Positions 13,689 to 63,538 of a DNA stretch of 64,000 nt are shown piece after piece (the stretch's first letter is position 1; the number at the start of each line of letters is the position of its first letter). Made by a program: the position numbers and the translations under genes. A model generated the notes under the pieces. It worked only from the letters and a program-made list of their open reading frames with translations. It did not search any database and had not been told where the DNA came from. Origin of the DNA: Gammaproteobacteria bacterium (GTDB lineage Bacteria > Pseudomonadota > Gammaproteobacteria > JAURND01); NCBI GenBank assembly GCA_035546635.1, contig DASZWJ010000019.1, forward strand, positions 229,386-293,385, in the 5' to 3' direction.

Positions 13689-14651
13689 GTGTCAATACAT
13701 CCTATGACAGACATCACACCCAATGTTCACTGGTTAATTGTTGAAAGCCACTCTGAAGGCCAGCGTATCGATAATTTTTTGTTTTCTCGGCTAAAGGGAG
13801 TCCCTAAGAGTCGTATTTATCGGGCGCTGCGTAATGGTGAATTCCGTGCCAATAAAAAAAGAATTACTGCGGATTACCGCCTGCATGCAGGCGACTCTAT
13901 CCGTATACCACCCTTACGCGTCGCTACCCGTGAAACACCAGCCAAACCAGCGGCAAACTTGATTAAATTACTGGCAGAAGCAGTCATTTATGAAGATAAA
14001 GACATCATTATAGTGAATAAACCCTCCGGTATTGCTGCGCATGGCGGCAGTGGCATTCATTTTGGTGTCATTGAATTGTTGCGACACCTACACCCCAAGT
14101 TAAAATTTTTGGAATTGGTGCATCGCTTAGACCGTGACACCACCGGCTGTTTGATGTTGGCGAAAAAACCTTCTATATTGAAAGAGTTGCATCAATTATT
14201 GGCTCATGGTCAAGTTGAAAAAACCTATTTGGCGTTAGTTGCGCACCCTTTTAACGGTAAAGAGCGCAGAATTAAGGCGGCTTTACAGAAAAATTTATTG
14301 CGCTCGGGTGAGCGGGTGGTTACGGTGAATGCTGAAGGCAAGCCAGCTGAAACCATTATTACGCCTCTTGAGGTTTTCACACATACGTCCCTGATTGCAG
14401 CGAAGCCTCTGACTGGACGCACTCACCAGATTCGCGTACATGCTGCGCATATTGGTCATAGTATTTTAGGCGATGAGAAGTACGGTGATCGCAAAATGGA
14501 TAAGGCTTTGGGGGTTAAACATTTATTGTTGCATGCAGCAGCATTGAAATTTGTGATGCCTACCTCTGGTAAAGCAATTGCTGTGTGTGCTTGTTTGGAT
14601 CAGCATTTTCAGGAGGTTCTAAAAAAAATGCGCGGCTTCTTACAGCCTTGA
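13689..14651 (+). CDS. rluC: 23S rRNA pseudouridine synthase RluC
   Basis: It has an S4-like N-terminus (QRIDNFLFSRLKGVPKSRIYRAL) and the catalytic motif HRLDRDTTGCLMLAK. It is divergent from rne, as in E. coli. The start could be GTG 13689 or ATG 13704. Confidence 0.88.
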   Translation: MSIHPMTDITPNVHWLIVESHSEGQRIDNFLFSRLKGVPKSRIYRALRNGEFRANKKRITADYRLHAGDSIRIPPLRVATRETPAKPAANLIKLLAEAVIYEDKDIIIVNKPSGIAAHGGSGIHFGVIELLRHLHPKLKFLELVHRLDRDTTGCLMLAKKPSILKELHQLLAHGQVEKTYLALVAHPFNGKERRIKAALQKNLLRSGERVVTVNAEGKPAETIITPLEVFTHTSLIAAKPLTGRTHQIRVHAAHIGHSILGDEKYGDRKMDKALGVKHLLLHAAALKFVMPTSGKAIAVCACLDQHFQEVLKKMRGFLQP

Positions 14652-14688
14652 CTTTTTTCCTTCTCCCCTTGTGGGAGAAGGAAAAAAG
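14652..14688. repeat. family A-like perfect palindrome immediately after the rluC stop
   Basis: cttttttccttctcccc ttgt gggagaaggaaaaaag has the same loop/core as family A. The stem differs but remains complementary. Confidence 0.75.
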
Positions 14689-14814
14689 CTAGGGCTGTAA
14701 GAGGAAAAAGTTAAGGCTGTAAGAGGCTATAAGAGATTGATGCCTACCCTAAAACATGGTTTAATGCCCTCCCTCAGCCTGGCTTTTGCCAGCATAATAT
14801 TATTTTAATTTTAC

Positions 14815-16743
<1,929 letters not shown>

Positions 16744-24536: not shown

Positions 24537-24647
24537 AAAGGGTAGGGTAAGCGAAAAACATAATTTTTTCTGAACCGAAAATTTTTAACTAATTTTAAAC
24601 AATAATATAATCTCGGTCTTCAATAAACTTTGGTGAAGAAAAAATAT

Positions 24648-26084
24648 ATGCTTATTACCCCCTCTCGAAAAAATTGGTATCGACTTTTATTAATCATGGT
24701 ATTTTTTGCGTTTCTTAGCGCATTCTTCATGATTTTCCTTCCGCATATTAAAGAGGAAGGTCGGTATACCATTGCCTCCATGGAAATGTTTTACAATCAT
24801 TACTATTGGCAACCGACCACGTATGGCGCACATTATCGAAGACCGCCCTTTTTCAATTGGCTAACACTGCCTATTATGCACTGGATAGGTGCCCAAAATG
24901 TACTGGTTGCTTCGCGTATTGTGGCGGCTAGCGGCACTGTGCTTTTAGCCTTGATGTTGTGGTTCTTCAGTCTCCACTTATTTAAAAACAAAGTCTTCGC
25001 GATTTTTAGTGTTGCCGTATTATTTTCTGGAGATTTTCTATTAGGCAAGGCCTGGGTGGCTTACCCTGATACTTGGTTTGCGTTTTTCACGTTTACTGCC
25101 ATTAGCTGCATGTGGATAAGCATTAAAGAACAACGTCCTTTATTTTGGATTCCTATCCCTTTTGTATTATTCGCAGCGCTACTCACCAAAGCGTTCACCT
25201 GTTATATATTTTATGCTACCGCATTATTGGTAGTAACCATAGGGTTAGGATGGTCTAAAAACTGGCGTTATCTACTTAAACCGGCCAGCATTTTAGCCCA
25301 TGCATTAGTGATTATATTACCCCTCACATGGTTTTTGCTGCCTGAATCGACTGGTTTAGCCGGTATGTTAGGAGATGTTTCGGGTTCAATGGCACAACCT
25401 GAGCAATTCACCTGGTTAGGTTATTTTCTAAAAATTCTGTCAACGCCGTTTAGTTTCATTTATTTGCTGCTCCCCATTGATATACTGGTGCTTTATTGTT
25501 TATATCGCTATAAAAAATATCCTACTATCCAGCCGGTCACCCGTTTGGATGGACAATCCATTAAATTATTAATCTGGATTATAGTCTTAAGCATATTACC
25601 TTATTGGTTTTCGACAGCGCATCTGTTAAATCCACGTTATTTATTTCCCTTATTACCCATGATAGCGATAGTGCTAGCCTATTGTGTTTGGCGGGCTGGG
25701 GAAAAAATGGTGGGTTTTGCCATTTTAATATTAATATTTGAGTTGTTCTTGAAGTGTATTTTGGTCATTTTAATTAGCCACCCTGGGAAGTTTACCTCTG
25801 TAGATTTTTCGCTTGACCAAATTGCAAATGATGCCCTCAAGCAAAGTCAGTCATATGCTAATTTAATCTATGTTAGCGATTTCGATGATGGGGGATATGG
25901 GGTGAATATTGCCTCTAAAATTAATATAATCCGTTGGCCTCAACCACCTTTAACGACTGCGCCTGAGCCACTGACCAAAGGTTGTGTGCTTAGCCAGGTG
26001 AATAGTACTAAGTGGGGGGTAGTGCCCAAGGTATATCATGTAAATAACGGGCGGGGTAAGCCTATTTATGTTTATTGCAAATAG
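24648..26084 (+). CDS. polytopic membrane glycosyltransferase, ArnT/PMT-like (GT39/GT83-type fold)
   Basis: It has more than 10 predicted TM helices. Its first periplasmic loop has the pattern EGRY...EMF...W.P...RRPPFFNWL, resembling the ArnT/PMT_2 signature. The start is ATG 24648, or upstream TTG/GTG codons. Confidence 0.55.
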   Translation: MLITPSRKNWYRLLLIMVFFAFLSAFFMIFLPHIKEEGRYTIASMEMFYNHYYWQPTTYGAHYRRPPFFNWLTLPIMHWIGAQNVLVASRIVAASGTVLLALMLWFFSLHLFKNKVFAIFSVAVLFSGDFLLGKAWVAYPDTWFAFFTFTAISCMWISIKEQRPLFWIPIPFVLFAALLTKAFTCYIFYATALLVVTIGLGWSKNWRYLLKPASILAHALVIILPLTWFLLPESTGLAGMLGDVSGSMAQPEQFTWLGYFLKILSTPFSFIYLLLPIDILVLYCLYRYKKYPTIQPVTRLDGQSIKLLIWIIVLSILPYWFSTAHLLNPRYLFPLLPMIAIVLAYCVWRAGEKMVGFAILILIFELFLKCILVILISHPGKFTSVDFSLDQIANDALKQSQSYANLIYVSDFDDGGYGVNIASKINIIRWPQPPLTTAPEPLTKGCVLSQVNSTKWGVVPKVYHVNNGRGKPIYVYCK

Positions 26085-26110
26085 AGGGGGTATGTGAATA
26101 CCCTATCATT

Positions 26111-26186
26111 AAGCAGGCACTTCCCTTCTCCCATCCCGCAAGGGGATTCCCTTCGGTCACAGACGGGAGAAGGGAAGTGCCTGCTT
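26111..26186 (+). repeat. family A' hairpin: 22-bp perfect stem enclosing the conserved 32-nt core
   Basis: The stem aagcaggcacttcccttctccc / gggagaagggaagtgcctgctt encloses atcccgcaaggggattcccttcggtcacagac. It lies 27 nt after the stop of the ArnT-like gene. Confidence 0.85.
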
Positions 26187-26320
26187 ATGGAATGATATGA
26201 TGAATACTTGACCCCTCAGCCCACCTAGACTTGAAAGTGCTCCTTATGCTAAACTCCCGTTTTTATATGATCTGCTTTTCTTTACCCAGTATGCGGCAAT
26301 TGCGGCGAGCTTAATCACTT

Positions 26321-28120: not shown

Positions 28121-29100
28121 ATACCTGGGTGAAGGCCTGGTATGACCGTCACCCTTGGCTCTATGCATTAACACCATTTGCCGCTATTTACTGCAGTGCA
28201 GCACAAATCAAACGTTACAGTTATCGAATTGGCCTAAAAAAAACCACGCAATTTGCAGTGCCTGTGATTGTAATCGGCAATGTTACCGTAGGTGGAACCG
28301 GTAAAACCCCATTAGTGATTGCTTTAGCGAAAATCCTCCTTGAACACGGATATAAACCTGGGATAGTCAGTCGTGGTTACGGTGGTCAAGCCGCAACGAC
28401 ACCACAATGGGTAACAGGAAATAGCAACCCTCTGGAAACTGGGGATGAGCCATTATTAATCGCACGGCATACCCTTTGCCCTTTAGTCATTGCCAAACAA
28501 CGTGTCTCGGCAATCACTACTTTACTCAATCATTACCCTTGCGATGTCATACTCAGCGATGATGGTCTGCAGCATTATGCTATGGGAAGGAGCATAGAAA
28601 TTGCTGTCATAGATGGGGTGCGGCGTTTTGGTAATGGTCTTTGCCTGCCAGCCGGTCCGTTACGTGAGCCCTTATCGCGCCTAAAACAAGTGGATTTTAA
28701 GGTGACTCAAGGCAACCCAGAACTGGGTGAATGGGCGATGCAATTGCTGCCGGGAACCATTTATAATCTCGCAAATCCAGAACAAAAATTGCATCCTCAT
28801 GAACATCTACCTCCTGTACACGCCGTAGCCGGCATAGGCAATCCGCAACGCTTTTTTACTCAGCTTGAACAACTGGGATTTACTGTTATTGCGCATCCAT
28901 TTCCCGATCATTATCATTTCCAGCCAGGTGATATTGATTTTGGTAAAAATGCCATCACCATTATGACTGAAAAAGATGCGGTGAAATGTGAAAAATTTGC
29001 GGATGAGCGGCATTGGTGTTTGCCAGTGACTGCACAATGTGATGCGGGTTTTATTAATTTACTGTTGGAAAAATTAGGCTGTCATCCTGGGCGTAAGTGA
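28117..29100 (+). CDS. lpxK: tetraacyldisaccharide 4'-kinase LpxK
   Basis: It has the P-loop GNVTVGGTGKTP and SRGYGG. The last codons (CHPGRK-stop) lie inside a family B repeat. Confidence 0.9.
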   Translation: MNTWVKAWYDRHPWLYALTPFAAIYCSAAQIKRYSYRIGLKKTTQFAVPVIVIGNVTVGGTGKTPLVIALAKILLEHGYKPGIVSRGYGGQAATTPQWVTGNSNPLETGDEPLLIARHTLCPLVIAKQRVSAITTLLNHYPCDVILSDDGLQHYAMGRSIEIAVIDGVRRFGNGLCLPAGPLREPLSRLKQVDFKVTQGNPELGEWAMQLLPGTIYNLANPEQKLHPHEHLPPVHAVAGIGNPQRFFTQLEQLGFTVIAHPFPDHYHFQPGDIDFGKNAITIMTEKDAVKCEKFADERHWCLPVTAQCDAGFINLLLEKLGCHPGRK

Positions 29101-35103: not shown

Positions 35104-35412
35104 TCAAGTCTTGTCTGTGGGCTCCAGAGATGAAGTTTCCGCTACAACAGCTTGATTTTTCTCCAATTGTTTTATGTGGTTTTTAAGCGAGCGGTTGCGA
35201 TTTTTTAATTTAAACCAAGGATAAATGGTTGTCAAAAAACCAAGTATAATTCCTATACCCAGGCAATAAACCATTAACAAAGACAATGCAATCTTAGTAT
35301 TTCCAAGATAATAATCTAAAGTGACAGGCGTATCATTACGAACTGCGAAAGTAATGCCTAGCAGTATAATCAGTAGTATTAGTACATAAGAGATGATACG
35401 CATGACTTTCAT
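35104..35412 (-). CDS. lapA: LapA-like (YciS/DUF1049) inner-membrane protein
   Basis: 102 aa with two TM helices and then a basic/helical tail (KLKNRNRSLKNHIKQLEKNQ). It lies downstream of rpsA, the usual lapA neighbourhood. Confidence 0.6.
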   Translation of the reverse strand: MKVMRIISYVLILLIILLGITFAVRNDTPVTLDYYLGNTKIALSLLMVYCLGIGIILGFLTTIYPWFKLKNRNRSLKNHIKQLEKNQAVVAETSSLEPTDKT

Positions 35413-35433: not shown

Positions 35434-35585
35434 CCCAAGGGTCGTTGTTGAATAAATCGAATAAATTGAGTGTCAATCTATGTTGGGTGCCATCCGGCTG
35501 AGATTCCGCGACTTGATCGCGGGATCTCAGCCGGATGGCACTAAGCAGAGTAAACCCTTCTTATTTATTCAACAATCCCCAAGGG
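35434..35585. mobile_element. MITE-like element with 13-bp terminal inverted repeats and an 8-bp flanking direct duplication
   Basis: The direct repeat cccaaggg occurs at 35434-35441 and 35578-35585. The TIRs are ttgttgaataaat (35445-35457) and atttattcaacaa (35563-35575). The central 25-bp hairpin spans 35487-35541. No ORF is present. Confidence 0.7.
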
Positions 35586-35619: not shown

Positions 35620-37296
35620 TTACTCTTTGTTATTTTTATCACCTTTAACCTGCTCTCTGAACAAATCTCCTAAAGTAGTGCCAACTATCGGTTCTTTTTT
35701 GGAAGAAGCTTTAGGTTCTTTAGTTTCTTCATCCAAAGCTTTTAAAGACAGATTGAAAATGTTCAGTTTACGATCCACACCGATTAATTTTGCAGTAACT
35801 TCATCTCCGACCTTGAAAAATTCCTGAGCATCTTTCAATTGCTCATGGCTGATTTCAGATACACGCAGATGTCCTTGCAACCCATTGCCCAAATCAATCA
35901 CGGCACGTTTTGCATCTACAGAGGTTACTTGACCATTGACGATAGTACCTTTAGGGTGATCTTCCAAGAATTTTCCGATAGGATCACTTTCTAATTGTTT
36001 AACGCCAAGAGATATACGCTCACGTTCAGGATCAATGGCTAAAATAACTGCTTCCAGTTGATCGCCTTTCTTGTATTTACGGATAGCTGCTTCACCGGTA
36101 TCTTTCCAGGAAATATCTGATAAATGCACTAAGCCATCAATACCCCCTTCCAAACCAATGAAGATACCAAAATCAGTGATGGATTTAACGCTGCCGGAAA
36201 CTTTTTCTCCCTTATTATGATTGTTAGCGAACTCTGCCCAGGGGTTAGGTTGGCACTGTTTCATGCCTAAAGAAATTCGACGTCGCTCTTCATCAATCTC
36301 CAATACCATGACTTCAACTTCCTGACCCGGTTGTACAAGCTTGGCAGGATGGACATTTTTATTAGTCCAATCCATTTCAGACATATGCACCAGACCTTCG
36401 ATACCGTCTTCAATTTGCACAAAACAGCCGTAATCAGTGATGTTGGTGATATTTCCAAATAAATGGGTATTAACTGGATAACGGCGTGCAATATCTAACC
36501 ACGGATCTTCGCCTAATTGTTTCAAGCCCAATGAAACACGTTTTTTATCTCTGTCATATTTGAGCACTTTAACTTTAATTTCATCACCCACTTTCAAGAT
36601 TTCGCTAGGATGTTTTACGCGTCTCCAAGCCATATCCGTAATATGCAGCAACCCATCAATGCCGCCTAAATCAATGAAGGCGCCATAATCAGTAATATTT
36701 TTGACCACACCGGTGAATTCCTGACCCTCTTTCAGGCTTTCCAGTAAGGCTTGTCGCTCGCCGCCTGACTCTTCTTCAACCACAGCACGGCGGGAAACTA
36801 CAATATTATTACGCTTCTGATCCATCTTGATGACTTTAAATTCCAGCTCTTTACCTTCCAAAGCTGCTGCTTCACGTGTAGAACGCAGGTCTACTAAGGA
36901 GCCTGGTAAAAATGCACGCACTGAGTTCAAATCTACCGTAAATCCGCCTTTGACGCGTTCTGTCACTAAACCCATTACCGTCTGCCCTGAAGTGAAGGCT
37001 TTTTCAAGCTGTTCCCAAGCTTCAGTTCTGCGAGCTTTTTCGCGAGATACGCGGGTATTGCCAAAACCATCTTCCAGTGTTTCAACAATGACATTAATTT
37101 CATCCCCAAGCTGTACCGTTTCTCCACGAAATTCTTCTGCTGGAACAACGGCGTCTGATTTCAGGCCTGTGTTTACTGTAATATTTTCAGGGGTAATGCG
37201 AATGATCTTAGCCCGCACTGTGGCGCCGGGTCTAATATCGGCTTGTTTTAAGGTTTCTTGAAACAGGTCAGCGAAACTTTCGTTGGTATTACTCAT
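35620..37296 (-). CDS. rpsA: 30S ribosomal protein S1
   Basis: 558 aa with six S1 repeats (for example [26 protein letters not shown]), downstream of cmk. Confidence 0.97.
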
Positions 37297-37477: not shown

Positions 37478-37562
37478 TTCCAGCAGGAAGGCCGGATCCA
37501 GTCGCAGGAAAGCGAAACTTTAACTTCCCTGTCAACTGGATCCCGACTCCCTGCCGGGACGG
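37478..37562 (+). repeat. family C element, copy 1
   Basis: ttccagcaggaaggccggatccagtcgcaggaaagcgaaactttaacttccctgtcaactggatcccgactccctgccgggacgg aligns along its length with 63453-63538. It overlaps the cmk 3' end. Confidence 0.8.
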
Positions 37563-44602: not shown

Positions 44603-44619
44603 ATGAACGATGAAGCATT

Positions 44620-44701
44620 GTCATTCCCACCTAGGTGGGAATCTATCCTAATTTTGGCTAGATGCCAGAGAAGAATAGATTCCCGCCTACGCAGGAATGA
44701 C
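44620..44701. repeat. family F composite palindrome built from two ATTCCC-N8-(G/A)GGAAT units
   Basis: gtcattcccacctaggtgggaatctat ... atagattcccgcctacgcaggaatgac has outer and inner inverted repeats. It lies between msrA and hisG. Confidence 0.8.
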
Positions 44702-44740
44702 ATGTTTTTTATATACTTAAATTCACACTAGATAAAGCTG

Positions 44741-45645: not shown

Positions 45646-46956
45646 GTGCATATTCATTTTTGGAATCAGTTATCCGCAATAGAACAGCAAAATCTGCTGG
45701 AAAGACCTAAAGCCAGTCAACCTGACTCAATTCGGGAAAAAACCCAAGCAATTATCGATCAAGTAAGGGAAGAGGGCGATGCAGCGTTAATTGACCTCAC
45801 CGTCCTACACGACAAAGTAAAACTAACCCAATTAACCACTACTTTAGCGGAATTTTCAGCAGCAAAAAATCAAATCCGCAAAGAAGCGTTAGCCGCTATA
45901 GAGCGTGCACAACAGCAGATCACCACTTATCATCAAGCACAACAGCCTGAAATCCGCAAAATTGAAACTGCCCCAGGTATTTACTGTGAGCGTCAGCCAC
46001 GTGCCATTGACAGAGTAGGGCTTTATGTTCCAGGTGGCTCTGCCCCTTTGATTTCTACTTTGCTGATGCTGGCAATTCCAGCACAGTTAGCCGGTTGCTC
46101 ACTCAAAGTCCTCTGCACACCACCGAATAAAAATGGCACTATTGATCCACATTTGTTATATGCTGCAGAGCTGTGTGGTATTCAGCAAATTTTTAAAATC
46201 GGCGGAGCGCAAGCGGTCGCTGCGATGGCCTATGGCACTGAATCTGTACCGAAAGTTGATAAAATCTTTGGGCCAGGAAATGCTTTTGTCCTTGCTGCGA
46301 AAATGTTGGTTTCACAGGATGCCAAAGGTGCCAGTATTGATATGCCTGCTGGTCCATCAGAGCTCCTGGTGATTGCCGATGACAATGCCAATGCAGATTT
46401 TGTTGCTGCAGATTTGTTATCTCAAGCTGAACATGGGATTGATTCGCAAGTGATATTGCTGACCATGTCAGTAGATTTTGCTAACCAAGTTCATGGTGCG
46501 CTTAACCAGCAATTATCCCAGCTATCACGTCGCACAATTGCTGAGCAATCTTTAGCCCATGGCCGTATTATTGTCGTTACCTCTTTGGAACAAGCATTTT
46601 CTATTAGCAATCGTTATGCCCCTGAGCATTTAAGCTTACAAATAACCCACCCAGAGAACTTTCTCACAGAGATTCATAATGCAGGAGCCGTATTTTTAGG
46701 TGACTGGTCAGCTGAAACTATGGGAGACTATATCACCGGTTCTAACCATGTTTTGCCTACTTCAGGTTTTGCGCGCGCCTATAGTGGGTTATCTTTAGTG
46801 GATTTTATGAAGTTTATTAGTTTTCAAAAAGTCAGCCGCCCTGGGTTGCAAGCCCTTGGGCCATTTGCCGAACAATTGGCCGAGCTGGAAGGATTGGATG
46901 CTCACAGAAATGCGGTGTCTATTCGTTTGGGAGTTGACTTTCATCCTGAGCATTAG
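45646..46956 (+). CDS. hisD: histidinol dehydrogenase
   Basis: It has LLSQAEHG and GDYITGSNHVLPT. The start is GTG. The last codons (FHPEH-stop) lie inside family B repeat copy a. Confidence 0.93.
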   Translation: MHIHFWNQLSAIEQQNLLERPKASQPDSIREKTQAIIDQVREEGDAALIDLTVLHDKVKLTQLTTTLAEFSAAKNQIRKEALAAIERAQQQITTYHQAQQPEIRKIETAPGIYCERQPRAIDRVGLYVPGGSAPLISTLLMLAIPAQLAGCSLKVLCTPPNKNGTIDPHLLYAAELCGIQQIFKIGGAQAVAAMAYGTESVPKVDKIFGPGNAFVLAAKMLVSQDAKGASIDMPAGPSELLVIADDNANADFVAADLLSQAEHGIDSQVILLTMSVDFANQVHGALNQQLSQLSRRTIAEQSLAHGRIIVVTSLEQAFSISNRYAPEHLSLQITHPENFLTEIHNAGAVFLGDWSAETMGDYITGSNHVLPTSGFARAYSGLSLVDFMKFISFQKVSRPGLQALGPFAEQLAELEGLDAHRNAVSIRLGVDFHPEH

Positions 46957-47033
46957 TGAAGGATCTCCTTATGGTGGCACTAGCCACATGAAGTACCACC
47001 ATAAGGAGATCCTTCGTTTACGCTCAGGATGAC
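46940..47033. repeat. family B full-length palindromic element, copy a (hisD/hisC junction)
   Basis: The outer 11-bp stem is tcatcctgagc / gctcaggatga. The inner, perfect 20-bp stem is gaaggatctccttatggtgg / ccaccataaggagatccttc. The element contains the hisD stop codon (46954-46956). Confidence 0.9.
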
Positions 47034-47097
47034 AAAAAAATACAGCAACAGCCATATTAACAATTTAATACTTAAGAGCATCTTGAGTACACATATT

Positions 47098-49242: not shown

Positions 49243-49850
49243 TTGCGATTATTGATGCCTGTGGGGCTAATTTCGCTTCGGTGGAATTTGCACTTAAACG
49301 CTTGGGGCGAGCAGTGACGCTCACGCGAGATAAAGACATCATTCGCTCAGCATCACATGTAATTCTACCTGGCGTAGGCACTGCCAGCCAGGCTATGCAG
49401 CAATTGGAAAATTTACAATTAATTTCAGTGATTCAGCAATTAACGCAACCGGTATTAGGTATCTGTCTTGGCATGCAGATTTTACATGCCCATTCTGCTG
49501 AAGGCGATGTGGATTGTCTAGGCCTTTTGCCAGGGGATATTAAGCCATTGCCAGAAGATCAGGGTTTACCTATTCCACATATGGGTTGGAATCAGCTATG
49601 CATCTCCCATGCGACCAGTTCTTTACTGCAGGATATCCCGAATAATAGCTACGTCTATTACGTGCATAGCTATGCAGCGCCAGTGACTGAGCATACCCTG
49701 GCTACCACCCAATACGGTGCAATATTTACGGCAGCAGTACATTATAAAAATTTTTATGGGGTACAATTTCATCCTGAGCGTTCGGGAGCGGTTGGCGCTA
49801 AGATATTACAGAATTTTCTTGTCCTGAGCGAAAGCGAAGGATCTCCATAA
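49239..49850 (+). CDS. hisH: imidazole glycerol phosphate synthase, glutaminase subunit
   Basis: It has GICLGMQ (nucleophile Cys) and FHPERS. The C-terminal tail (VLSESEGSP-stop) is encoded by family B repeat copy b. Confidence 0.92.
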   Translation: MIAIIDACGANFASVEFALKRLGRAVTLTRDKDIIRSASHVILPGVGTASQAMQQLENLQLISVIQQLTQPVLGICLGMQILHAHSAEGDVDCLGLLPGDIKPLPEDQGLPIPHMGWNQLCISHATSSLLQDIPNNSYVYYVHSYAAPVTEHTLATTQYGAIFTAAVHYKNFYGVQFHPERSGAVGAKILQNFLVLSESEGSP

Positions 49851-49911
49851 TGTGGCGCCTCATCATAAAAGTGCCATCATACGGAGATCCTTCGCTATCG
49901 CTCAGGATGAC
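49819..49911. repeat. family B full-length palindromic element, copy b (hisH/hisA junction)
   Basis: The outer 10-bp stem is tcctgagcga / tcgctcagga. The inner 13-bp stem is gcgaaggatctcc / ggagatccttcgc. The element contains the hisH stop codon (49848-49850). Confidence 0.9.
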
Positions 49912-49932
49912 AGTCAAGGGAAATAAACCTCA

Positions 49933-63452: not shown

Positions 63453-63538
63453 TCTCCCGGCAGGAGGCCGGGATCCAGGTCGCAGGAAAGCGAAACTGTG
63501 ATGTCCCTATCAACTGGATTTCGGCTTCCTGCCGGGAC
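63453..63538 (+). repeat. family C element, copy 2
   Basis: tctcccggcaggaggccgggatccaggtcgcaggaaagcgaaactgtgatgtccctatcaactggatttcggcttcctgccgggac has the same orientation and architecture as 37478-37562. Confidence 0.8.

Follow-up and report, generated by a model that had tools for sequence, protein, structure and literature searches.

A conserved 32-nucleotide core nested in palindromes of a gammaproteobacterium is probably a repeat of the REP class

Introduction

The closest described relatives of the element examined here are the GTAG and CGTC super-families of repetitive extragenic palindromes (REPs), which are shared across phyla, lie downstream of open reading frames (ORFs) and form head-to-head dimers that fold into long hairpins (Di Nocera, De Gregorio and Rocco, 2013; PMC3733652). 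The same survey also describes REPs inside ORFs, including repair genes such as uvrA and recB-type genes, as well as REPs that are regularly inserted within larger palindromes, and it gives no known transposase for the CGTC class (PMC3733652). Three of the REPs described there, GTAG-15 of A. variabilis, GTAG-23 of T. roseum and CGTC-1 of H. neapolitanus, sit at the centre of longer palindromes (PMC3733652). In this report we examine a 32-nucleotide (nt) core that occurs twice, between complementary arms, in a stretch of 64,000 nt from a gammaproteobacterium (contig DASZWJ010000019.1; hereafter 'the window'). We conclude, with a probability of about 0.7, that the two copies are REP-class extragenic palindromic DNA repeats nested in a larger palindrome, and that they do not represent a dedicated RNA gene.

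Three other kinds of palindromic repeat serve as points of comparison. REP doublets forming hairpins (REPINs), reportedly described by Bertels and Rainey in 2011, are said to have conserved REP arms and a variable spacer. Rickettsia palindromic elements (RPEs) are known in frame within genes, and RPE-1 measures 100-150 bp. Finally, the QMITE2/GTAG REP of Coxiella burnetii is targeted by the insertion sequence (IS) IS1111 (PMC5896051).

Results

One core between two pairs of complementary arms

The pattern of the 32-nt core, ATCCCRCAAGGGGATTCCCTTCGGTCAYAGAC, has exactly two matches in the window, at 5315-5346 and 26133-26164, both on the + strand, and it matched none of 100 dinucleotide-preserving shuffles. 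The two cores differ at two of their 32 positions, both by transitions. An earlier note on this DNA had reported as much, and the pattern search bears it out. In copy 1, the core consists of a mini-hairpin, ATCCC-GCAAG-GGGAT (26133-26147), and a tail, TCCCTTCGGTCACAGAC (26148-26164). It is enclosed by a 23-nt left arm, TAAGCAGGCACTTCCCTTCTCCC (26110-26132), and a right arm, GGGAGAAGGGAAGTGCCTGCTTA (26165-26187), that is the exact reverse complement of the left one. Beyond these arms the stem extends imperfectly, with nucleotides ~26104-26109 pairing with 26192-26197. Copy 2 carries the core ATCCCACAAGGGGATTCCCTTCGGTCATAGAC between the arms TTAACCTCTCCC (5303-5314) and GGGAGAGGTTAA (5347-5358), which are again perfectly complementary, and an alternative fold of this copy has 10+4 bp with one bulge. 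The perfect stems measure 23 bp in copy 1 and 12 bp in copy 2; both had previously been recognized as fully complementary, but the stem of copy 1 had been given one pair too few, at 22 bp. Scored with nhmmer against a profile of the widespread module described below, the cores of copies 1 and 2 give E-values of 1.6e-8 and 9e-9, respectively.

The central 26 nt of the sequence between the arms, TCCC-RCAA-GGGGATTCCCTTCGGTCA, form a short hairpin followed by a conserved single-stranded tail, and we refer to this unit as the hairpin-plus-tail module. Both variable positions of the core fall in the loops of predicted mini-hairpins. The core also includes the reverse complement of the tip of another palindrome of the window, called family A (CCCACAAGGGG versus CCCCTTGTGGG), just as the earlier note had observed. 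The segment CCTTCGG, likened there to a tetraloop, is indeed present, but it lies within a stem of the predicted fold and forms no UUCG tetraloop.

Like REPs, both copies are short, GC-rich, imperfect palindromes that form stem-loops, with the inner hairpin ATCCC-RCAAG-GGGAT. The predicted RNA folding energy is -61.1 kcal/mol for copy 1 (z = -10.3 relative to shuffles) and -27.8 kcal/mol for copy 2 (z = -4.2), and the corresponding predictions for DNA are -37.4 and -15.7 kcal/mol. The opposite strand of both copies folds at least as well as the + strand.

Each copy is a family-A-type palindrome with an insert

Over a 62-nt unit, the two copies have a mean column identity of 91%. Their arms align (CACTT-CCC-T-TCTCCC versus CACTT-AAC-C-TCTCCC) with three pair differences, all of which are compensated; 6 of 24 perfectly paired positions differ between the copies, and homology is lost beyond these. 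The stems, which had been taken to differ in sequence, are not unrelated but are diverged homologues.

Moreover, the left arms of copies 1 and 2 align over their full length with the left arms of four family A elements (TTAAGCA...CCTCTCCC), the counterpart of the left arm of copy 1 being TTAAGCACTGTAATCCCCTCTCCC. The family A elements lie at 687-735 (+ strand; tip CTCTCCC-CTTGT-GGGAGAG, with a 5-nt loop and no core), at 7880-7917 (+ strand) and 8014-8054 (- strand), which form an inverted pair, and at 14638-14702 (+ strand; 30-nt arms of different sequence on the same type of tip, TTCTCCC-CTTGT-GGGAGAA). Within the - strand element, 14 nt (TCCCACAAGGGGAT) match part of the copy 2 core exactly. 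Taken together, the six elements are long hairpins built on the tip CTCCC..GGGAG, whose arms vary in length and partly in sequence, and at pairs 7 and 10 from the tip the differences are compensated on the other arm in every one of the six that still pairs there. In copies 1 and 2, a 32-nt insert replaces the 5-nt family A loop CTTGT. Because the arms of the copies are homologous to each other and to those of family A, each copy is best described as a family-A-type palindrome with a 32-nt insert.

The earlier note had proposed building a covariance model from the two copies. Within the window such a model finds the two copies themselves and core-less family A hairpins, among them those at 687-735 (matched with the core deleted) and 14638-14702; elsewhere it finds partial matches to the module, and it finds nothing else that carries the core. 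A conserved tip on variable complementary arms is thus general to this repeat family.

The module recurs in many bacteria, independently of context

We scanned one genome per species (596 Gb) for the 18-mer GGGGATTCCCTTCGGTCA, which matched at least 120 stretches; by our own estimate (596 Gb x two strands / 4^18), about 17 matches would be expected by chance. Roughly a dozen look like chance matches in coding sequence, and the remaining matches listed share an upstream hairpin, [A/G]TCCC-loop-GGGGATTCCCTTCGGTCA[C/T], with lineage-specific loops (AC, GAAAA, GCAA, ACAA or CTCC). Among the matches listed, most belong to Rhodocyclaceae, Xanthomonadales and gut Clostridia, and they are accompanied by single contigs from metagenome-assembled genomes (MAGs) of other phyla and by some viral contigs. 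Several copies per genome are common. Rhodocyclaceae MAGs are numerous among the carriers, and a number of them have more than one locus; other carriers are Rhodanobacter, Dyella, Lysobacterales, Sterolibacterium, Oscillospiraceae and other Clostridia, and MAGs of Verrucomicrobia, Patescibacteria, Anaerolineae and Polyangiaceae; taxonomy taken from MAGs carries the usual risk of mis-binning. Cultured carriers are Rhodanobacter panaciterrae, Rhodanobacter sp. KK11, Trinickia symbiotica, Jeongeupia wiesaeckerbachi and Kangiella spongicola. Five viral contigs of IMG/VR carry the module, and the contigs L126 and L128 are identical to copy 1 over 27 bases (26134-26160). The window-specific 26-mer had no match in a first metagenome scan and was present on two unrelated high-GC contigs in a second one. 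Since the 26-base centre is nearly unchanged in so many unrelated bacteria, it has the character of a fairly ordinary genomic repeat rather than of a dedicated structured RNA.

The distribution of the module is independent of its surroundings. In a Clostridia MAG and on a viral contig, a filled hairpin, GTAGGGGCGGC-module-GCCGCCC, with a 32-nt loop, adjoins an 'empty' one, GTAGGGGCGGC-CTGTG-GCCGCCC, with a 5-nt loop, which is the same relation as that of copies 1 and 2 to family A. Different arms enclose the module in Rhodanobacter (L010; CCCTCCCCTGC..GCAGGGGAGGG), in Sterolibacterium (TCCCCTCC..GGAGGGGA) and on a Verrucomicrobia contig (GGTGGGT/ACCCACC). Long enclosing stems are not universal, for the best ones outside the window have 7-11 bp and most copies have 6 bp or fewer. 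Nor is association with CTCTCCC..GGGAGAG hairpins general, as it was seen in 3 of 133 copies, all from Xanthomonadales. Judged by crude ORF calls, intergenic copies show no strand preference relative to the neighbouring genes.

Other copies reside in coding sequence. In Rhodocyclaceae, an element of 48 or 51 nt, GCCGTCCCGCCAGTCCC(AC or GAAAA)GGGGATTCCCTTCGGTCACGCCGACTTTT, is found in frame, and in both orientations, within conserved genes coding for MetH, HypF, a HemN-like radical SAM protein, UvrA, an AddB-like helicase-nuclease, a GT4 glycosyltransferase, PepA and a GspE-like protein (MAGs L070, L026, L032, L100, L112, L089, L016 and L097). In MetH, HypF and the HemN-like protein the insert is spanned by Pfam domains, and it falls between domains in the AddB-like protein, the glycosyltransferase and PepA. 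By comparison with solved structures, the insert amounts to 12 extra residues in MetH (1MSK, E. coli) and in HypF (4G9I, T. kodakarensis-type). According to our translation, five of the six frames of the element are open. Four of these are seen in 14 translated ORFs (QSHGDSLRSR, PVPRGFPSVTPTF, SPTGIPFGHAD and VGVTEGNPRGTGGTA), and the fifth (DRRESPW) occurs in the wider set; VTEGNPRGTGGTA, like QSHGDSLRSR, is a peptide encoded by the in-frame inserts of Rhodocyclaceae. Overall, frames that stay open for 100 codons or more to either side hold 28 of 117 family-like copies (15:13 by orientation); some such frames, in high-GC DNA, are probably spurious. Tandem arrays also exist: seven 24-nt units, encoding MTEGNPRG repeats inside a 903-aa ORF, in Trinickia symbiotica JPY-345 (L067 680-870), and five 27-nt units in a gammaproteobacterial MAG (L079 3863-3961).

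When the core was compared by BLAST with plasmids, phages and E. coli genomes, the only matches were partial ones at the level of chance; those in Rhizobium and Thermus were inspected and dismissed. Many Rhizobium plasmids carry a conserved sequence, CAACCCGCAAGGGGTTTCCCTTCGC, 5' of a DUF736 gene (L132 and L133, near position 400), about 21 nt of which resemble the core; we judged it to be unrelated. Neither the DNA sequence of the module nor its encoded peptides appear in any searchable paper, including the paper on RepRanger, or in those supplementary files of PMC3733652 that are in text form.

A syntenic relative lacks the module at both orthologous spacers

A relative whose MsbA and FtsK are 86% identical to those of the window is syntenic with it (L129, ena ERZ25039590 contig_62065; also L136). 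The module is absent from 44 kb of its syntenic DNA, including both spacers orthologous to those that hold copies 1 and 2. Each of these spacers holds a CGTC/TGTC-type REP with an ACAAG loop (L129 9792-9822 and L136 9896-9926). The presence of a different REP at both places marks them as long-standing REP sites whose occupant has changed, as happens in repeat turnover.

The same relative carries an IS110-family transposase gene (L129 5720-6799) between 33-nt perfect inverted repeats (5410-5442 and 7307-7339), beside family-A-type tips. We considered GGGGATCATAGAG, which is found there, as the left end of this IS110 element and rejected it, given that the same sequence occurs in a longer family-A-type element without any IS; the link between IS110 and the core is weak for this reason. 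The relative is also rich in long perfect palindromes. One of them (L129 16963-17099) has 67-nt arms around a 3-nt centre, and the same 22 kb of L129 contain several other palindromes, with arms of 20-43 nt that are 98-100% matched. Perfect palindromes of unusual length thus appear to be tolerated in this lineage.

Genes and other repeats around the two copies

Copy 1 lies 25 nt after the stop codon of ORF 24630-26084, which ends at 26084, and upstream of msbA (26321), whereas copy 2 lies 22 nt after the stop codon of ORF 3712-5280 and upstream of ftsK (5457). Both copies are intergenic, between + strand genes and shortly 3' of a stop codon, which is where REPs are preferentially placed; neither is in frame within a gene, as an RPE would be. 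The earlier note had set both copies downstream of glycan-related genes. The gaps agree, and the methyltransferase and kinase-like architecture of the protein encoded by ORF 3712-5280 fits the label 'WbdD-like', but the description of ORF 24630-26084 as an ArnT-like glycosyltransferase finds no support from Pfam or NCBIfam, neither of which yields a match. The gene content of the window (miaB-phoH-ybeY, ftsK, sbcB, trpS, msbA-lpxK and the his operon) points to a gammaproteobacterium. Its MsbA is identical to one labelled 'MAG TPA Gammaproteobacteria bacterium', and Coxiellaceae are among the more distant MsbA relatives.

Three Logan contigs of the window organism (L121, L123 and L138) start or end exactly at palindrome centres, at window positions 26147, 5335 and 709. 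We considered these ends as a sign of high copy number and rejected that interpretation, because the contigs stop at palindrome centres that include a family A tip, which points to an effect of assembly rather than to a copy-number signal.

Further structured elements are scattered through the window. A thiamin pyrophosphate (TPP) riboswitch (Rfam RF00059, 74 bits) lies at 14810-14916 on the + strand, 5' of a thiC-like ORF (14998-16743) and ~110 nt downstream of the family A palindrome at 14638-14702. Classical REPs with TGTC/CGTC tags, several of them head-to-head dimers, are found at 29080, 34905, 35009, 44619-44702, 46938-47034, 49816-49912 and 55173; examples are TGTCATCCTGAGCG..CGAAGGATCTCC and TGTCATTCCC..GGGAATC. 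Two of the dimers occupy his operon spacers: one separates hisH from hisA, and the other precedes hisC and follows ORF 45646-46956, which we take to be hisD from gene order only. A separate repeat family is represented by a 60-nt direct repeat with 85% identity (GTCGCAGGAAAGCGAAAC...CTGCCGGGAC; 37501-37560 and 63479-63538). Lastly, a hairpin at 35478-35550, with 34-nt arms (85% complementary) and a 5-nt loop, occupies the spacer between ORFs 35104-35412 and 35620-37296 and is unrelated to family A.

Discussion

Comparison with described repeats

The element shares several features with the GTAG and CGTC super-families, since these too are short, GC-rich, intergenic stem-loops mostly placed just 3' of ORFs, between co-directional or convergent genes, with a distribution across phyla and occasional in-frame copies. 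The resemblance to CGTC REPs is closer still. The stem of the module starts with A-T and T-A pairs (ATCCC/GGGAT), its loops comprise 3-6 nt, and in other genomes CGTC, TGTC or AGTC often directly precedes the CCC-loop-GGGG hairpin. As with the CGTC class, no dedicated transposase was found for it, and the window carries classical TGTC/CGTC REPs beside the module. However, its stem has 5 bp rather than the 8-9 bp of the CGTC families, the two window copies are untagged, and its invariant 13-nt 3' tail, TTCCCTTCGGTCA, has no counterpart in either super-family. Kinship to the tagged super-families is plausible, although the tag by which membership is defined, an unpaired GTAG or CGTC (TGTC/CCTC) tetranucleotide at one foot of the stem, is missing from the window copies. 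On the strength of its likeness to the CGTC class, and of its differences in stem, tail and tag, we file the element as an addition to the REP class that lies outside any named family.

The arrangement itself has a precedent in the nested REPs mentioned above, where a conserved REP likewise occupies the middle of a palindrome whose arms lie outside the REP (PMC3733652). Our case is different in that the host palindrome, family A, also occurs free of insert in the same genome, and in that the same insert is found within different palindromes of other phyla. The earlier note had left the choice between a structured RNA and a REP variant. The second of these is upheld by the family A arms, the dispersed module and the published precedent (PMC3733652), whereas the first has gained no positive support.

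The other three systems match less well. As in REPINs, a long hairpin is the repeated unit and the complementarity of its arms is maintained, but here it is the centre that is conserved (2 of 32 positions differ) and the arms that vary (6 of 24), and the arms are not themselves stem-loops. The Rhodocyclaceae element resembles RPEs in that it lies in frame in conserved enzymes whose Pfam domains read through it, but it is much shorter than RPE-1, and the two window copies are intergenic. With QMITE2, which we compared by description only, the element has in common a related host lineage (to judge from the Coxiellaceae relatives of MsbA), stable palindromes in 3' untranslated regions (UTRs) or intergenic DNA, occurrence across classes and a link to insertion of an IS110-family element. 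QMITE2 differs in its size of 150-190 bp, its terminal inverted repeats and its direct repeats of 7-11 nt.

How the module might spread

HUH/Y1 enzymes recognize a single-stranded DNA hairpin with an adjacent conserved unpaired segment. A hairpin beside a conserved unpaired tail, as found in the module, follows the substrate grammar of such enzymes, and for this reason an enzyme related to HUH proteins or to REP-associated tyrosine transposases (RAYTs), whose genes REPs usually flank, is our best guess for the agent of its mobilization. The module would then be non-autonomous selfish DNA, probably copied by way of a single-stranded hairpin intermediate with the enzyme supplied in trans. If the intermediate is indeed single-stranded and folded, both insertion into hairpin tips and perfect complementarity of the arms would follow naturally. 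The perfect arms may mark young copies, or one arm may have been corrected against the other in folded DNA. Transcription of the two copies would give the RNA a very stable hairpin on its 3' side, and this, as in other REPs, could impede 3' exonucleases or cause weak termination. Such an effect on the RNA of the upstream gene, whether protection of 3' ends or partial termination, is plausible from the analogy with other REPs, and it would be a by-product rather than what the sequence exists for.

Several observations weigh against this interpretation. Only two copies are visible in the 64 kb read, whether by core pattern, nhmmer or covariance model. A Pfam scan of 29 window ORFs, out of 61 that have at least 100 aa, found no transposase, and no RAYT, IS200/IS605, IS110 or integrase gene was found; likewise, no gene family recurs near the 120 or more module loci except common paralogues (ABC transporters and histidine kinases), so that the mobilizing enzyme is purely our postulate. 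Neither window copy has a GTAG or CGTC tag at the foot of the inner hairpin, which CTCCC precedes and TCCC follows. Despite the inverted arms, which are reminiscent of miniature inverted-repeat transposable elements, there are no direct repeats or target-site duplications flanking copy 1 (..CCTATCAT and TGGAATGA..) or copy 2 (..AAAACAC and AGTTCTT..). Conservation is higher in the loop than in the arms, the reverse of a classical REPIN. The two copies share their orientation and their position relative to the upstream gene, and with n=2 this fits an RNA role as well as it fits chance. Finally, simple neutral spread of selfish DNA does not account for stretches of 18-27 nt that are identical in genomes of 42-68% GC.

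Other explanations

We weighed whether the copies might be a cis-acting structured RNA in the 3' UTR of the upstream genes. In that case function would reside in the conserved 32-nt loop, as a site of binding or processing for example, and the variable stem would do no more than present it. That both copies lie on the sense strand, 22-26 nt after a stop codon, is what one would expect of such an RNA, as are the very stable RNA folds, the confinement of the two variable core positions to predicted mini-hairpin loops, and the compensation of all three pair differences in the stem (3/3). The count of compensated pairs clearly exceeds that in slid controls, but three compensated pairs from two sequences do not stand out from the shuffle control (70/500). 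At the gathering threshold, the TPP riboswitch is the only match to Rfam 15 in the window, and the element matches no family there or at 8 module-bearing loci; at a permissive threshold the site itself still matches none, its sub-threshold matches being to microRNA hairpins, which are generic long hairpins. The minus strand folds at least equally well, the module is found elsewhere in either orientation, in coding sequence and in tandem arrays, and the 86% relative has no module at either orthologous spacer. On balance we consider a structured RNA unlikely. We hold it to be very unlikely that the core is a by-product of IS110/IS1111-family elements, either as their preferred target or as a miniature derivative or footprint left in a hairpin tip. 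The IS110-family gene of the relative does show the same layout of cargo inside a palindrome, with its 33-nt perfect inverted repeats beside family-A-type tips, and IS1111 is reported to target REPs in Coxiella (PMC5896051). The tail of the copy 2 core also shares TCATAGA with GGGGATCATAGAG, which in the relative lies directly 3' of the family A tip (in the inverted repeats of L129 and in a family A element of L136). However, this sequence proved to be part of a longer family-A-type element, in its right arm, rather than an IS end, the module is absent from 44 kb of the very relative that carries the IS, no IS110 gene was found near any of the 120 or more module loci listed, and by our reasoning 32 nt is too small for a double-stranded circular intermediate.

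The remaining two explanations fail on their defining features. A stable, GC-rich hairpin shortly 3' of a stop codon, between co-directional genes, could be thought to serve as a factor-independent terminator of the upstream gene, but neither copy is followed by a T-tract, scans for terminator-like and promoter-like consensus sequences were negative at both sites, and a 32-nt loop on a 23-bp stem is atypical, so that this function is highly improbable; the earlier note was right to conclude that the copies are not canonical intrinsic terminators. An integron attC site, that is, a recombination site that acts as a folded single strand, is brought to mind by the sequence bounding copy 2, ACTTAAC...GTTAAAG, which resembles the R''/R' consensus that we take to be RYYYAAC...GTTRRRY. 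Copy 1 lacks these motifs, no integrase was found among the window ORFs scanned, and the neighbours are housekeeping genes (ftsK, msbA, lpxK and trpS) rather than cassettes, a context by which the attC explanation is effectively refuted.

Implications

Compared with our conclusion that the copies are nested REP-class repeats, a bolder proposal is made here tentatively and is more doubtful than not. The 24-27-nt module (CCC-loop-GGGG followed by ATTCCCTTCGGTCA) may be a hitherto undescribed mini-element that spreads horizontally by trans-acting machinery of its own, and this machinery would target single-stranded hairpin tips. If this were true, such machinery would explain why unrelated palindromes have the module nested in their loops, and it would explain the in-frame copies in essential genes and the tandem arrays. 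It would also explain spread from a Coxiellaceae-like bacterium of 42% GC to Proteobacteria of 68% GC, gut Clostridia and phage contigs, and the window copies would have arisen by such nesting, with family A palindromes as hosts.

A conserved core on covarying stems mimics an RNA gene and yet can be a nested REP, and such elements should accordingly be masked before noncoding RNA discovery. Palindromes of this kind also break short-read assemblies exactly at the palindrome centre. In Rhodocyclaceae, the inserts add at least 12 residues to conserved enzymes, MetH and HypF among them, and are in frame in UvrA as well, which matters for protein evolution and for gene calls in MAGs. Being short and near-invariant across distant phyla, present in filled and empty hairpins side by side, and available in cultured strains, the module lends itself to the study of how REPs without a RAYT partner spread.

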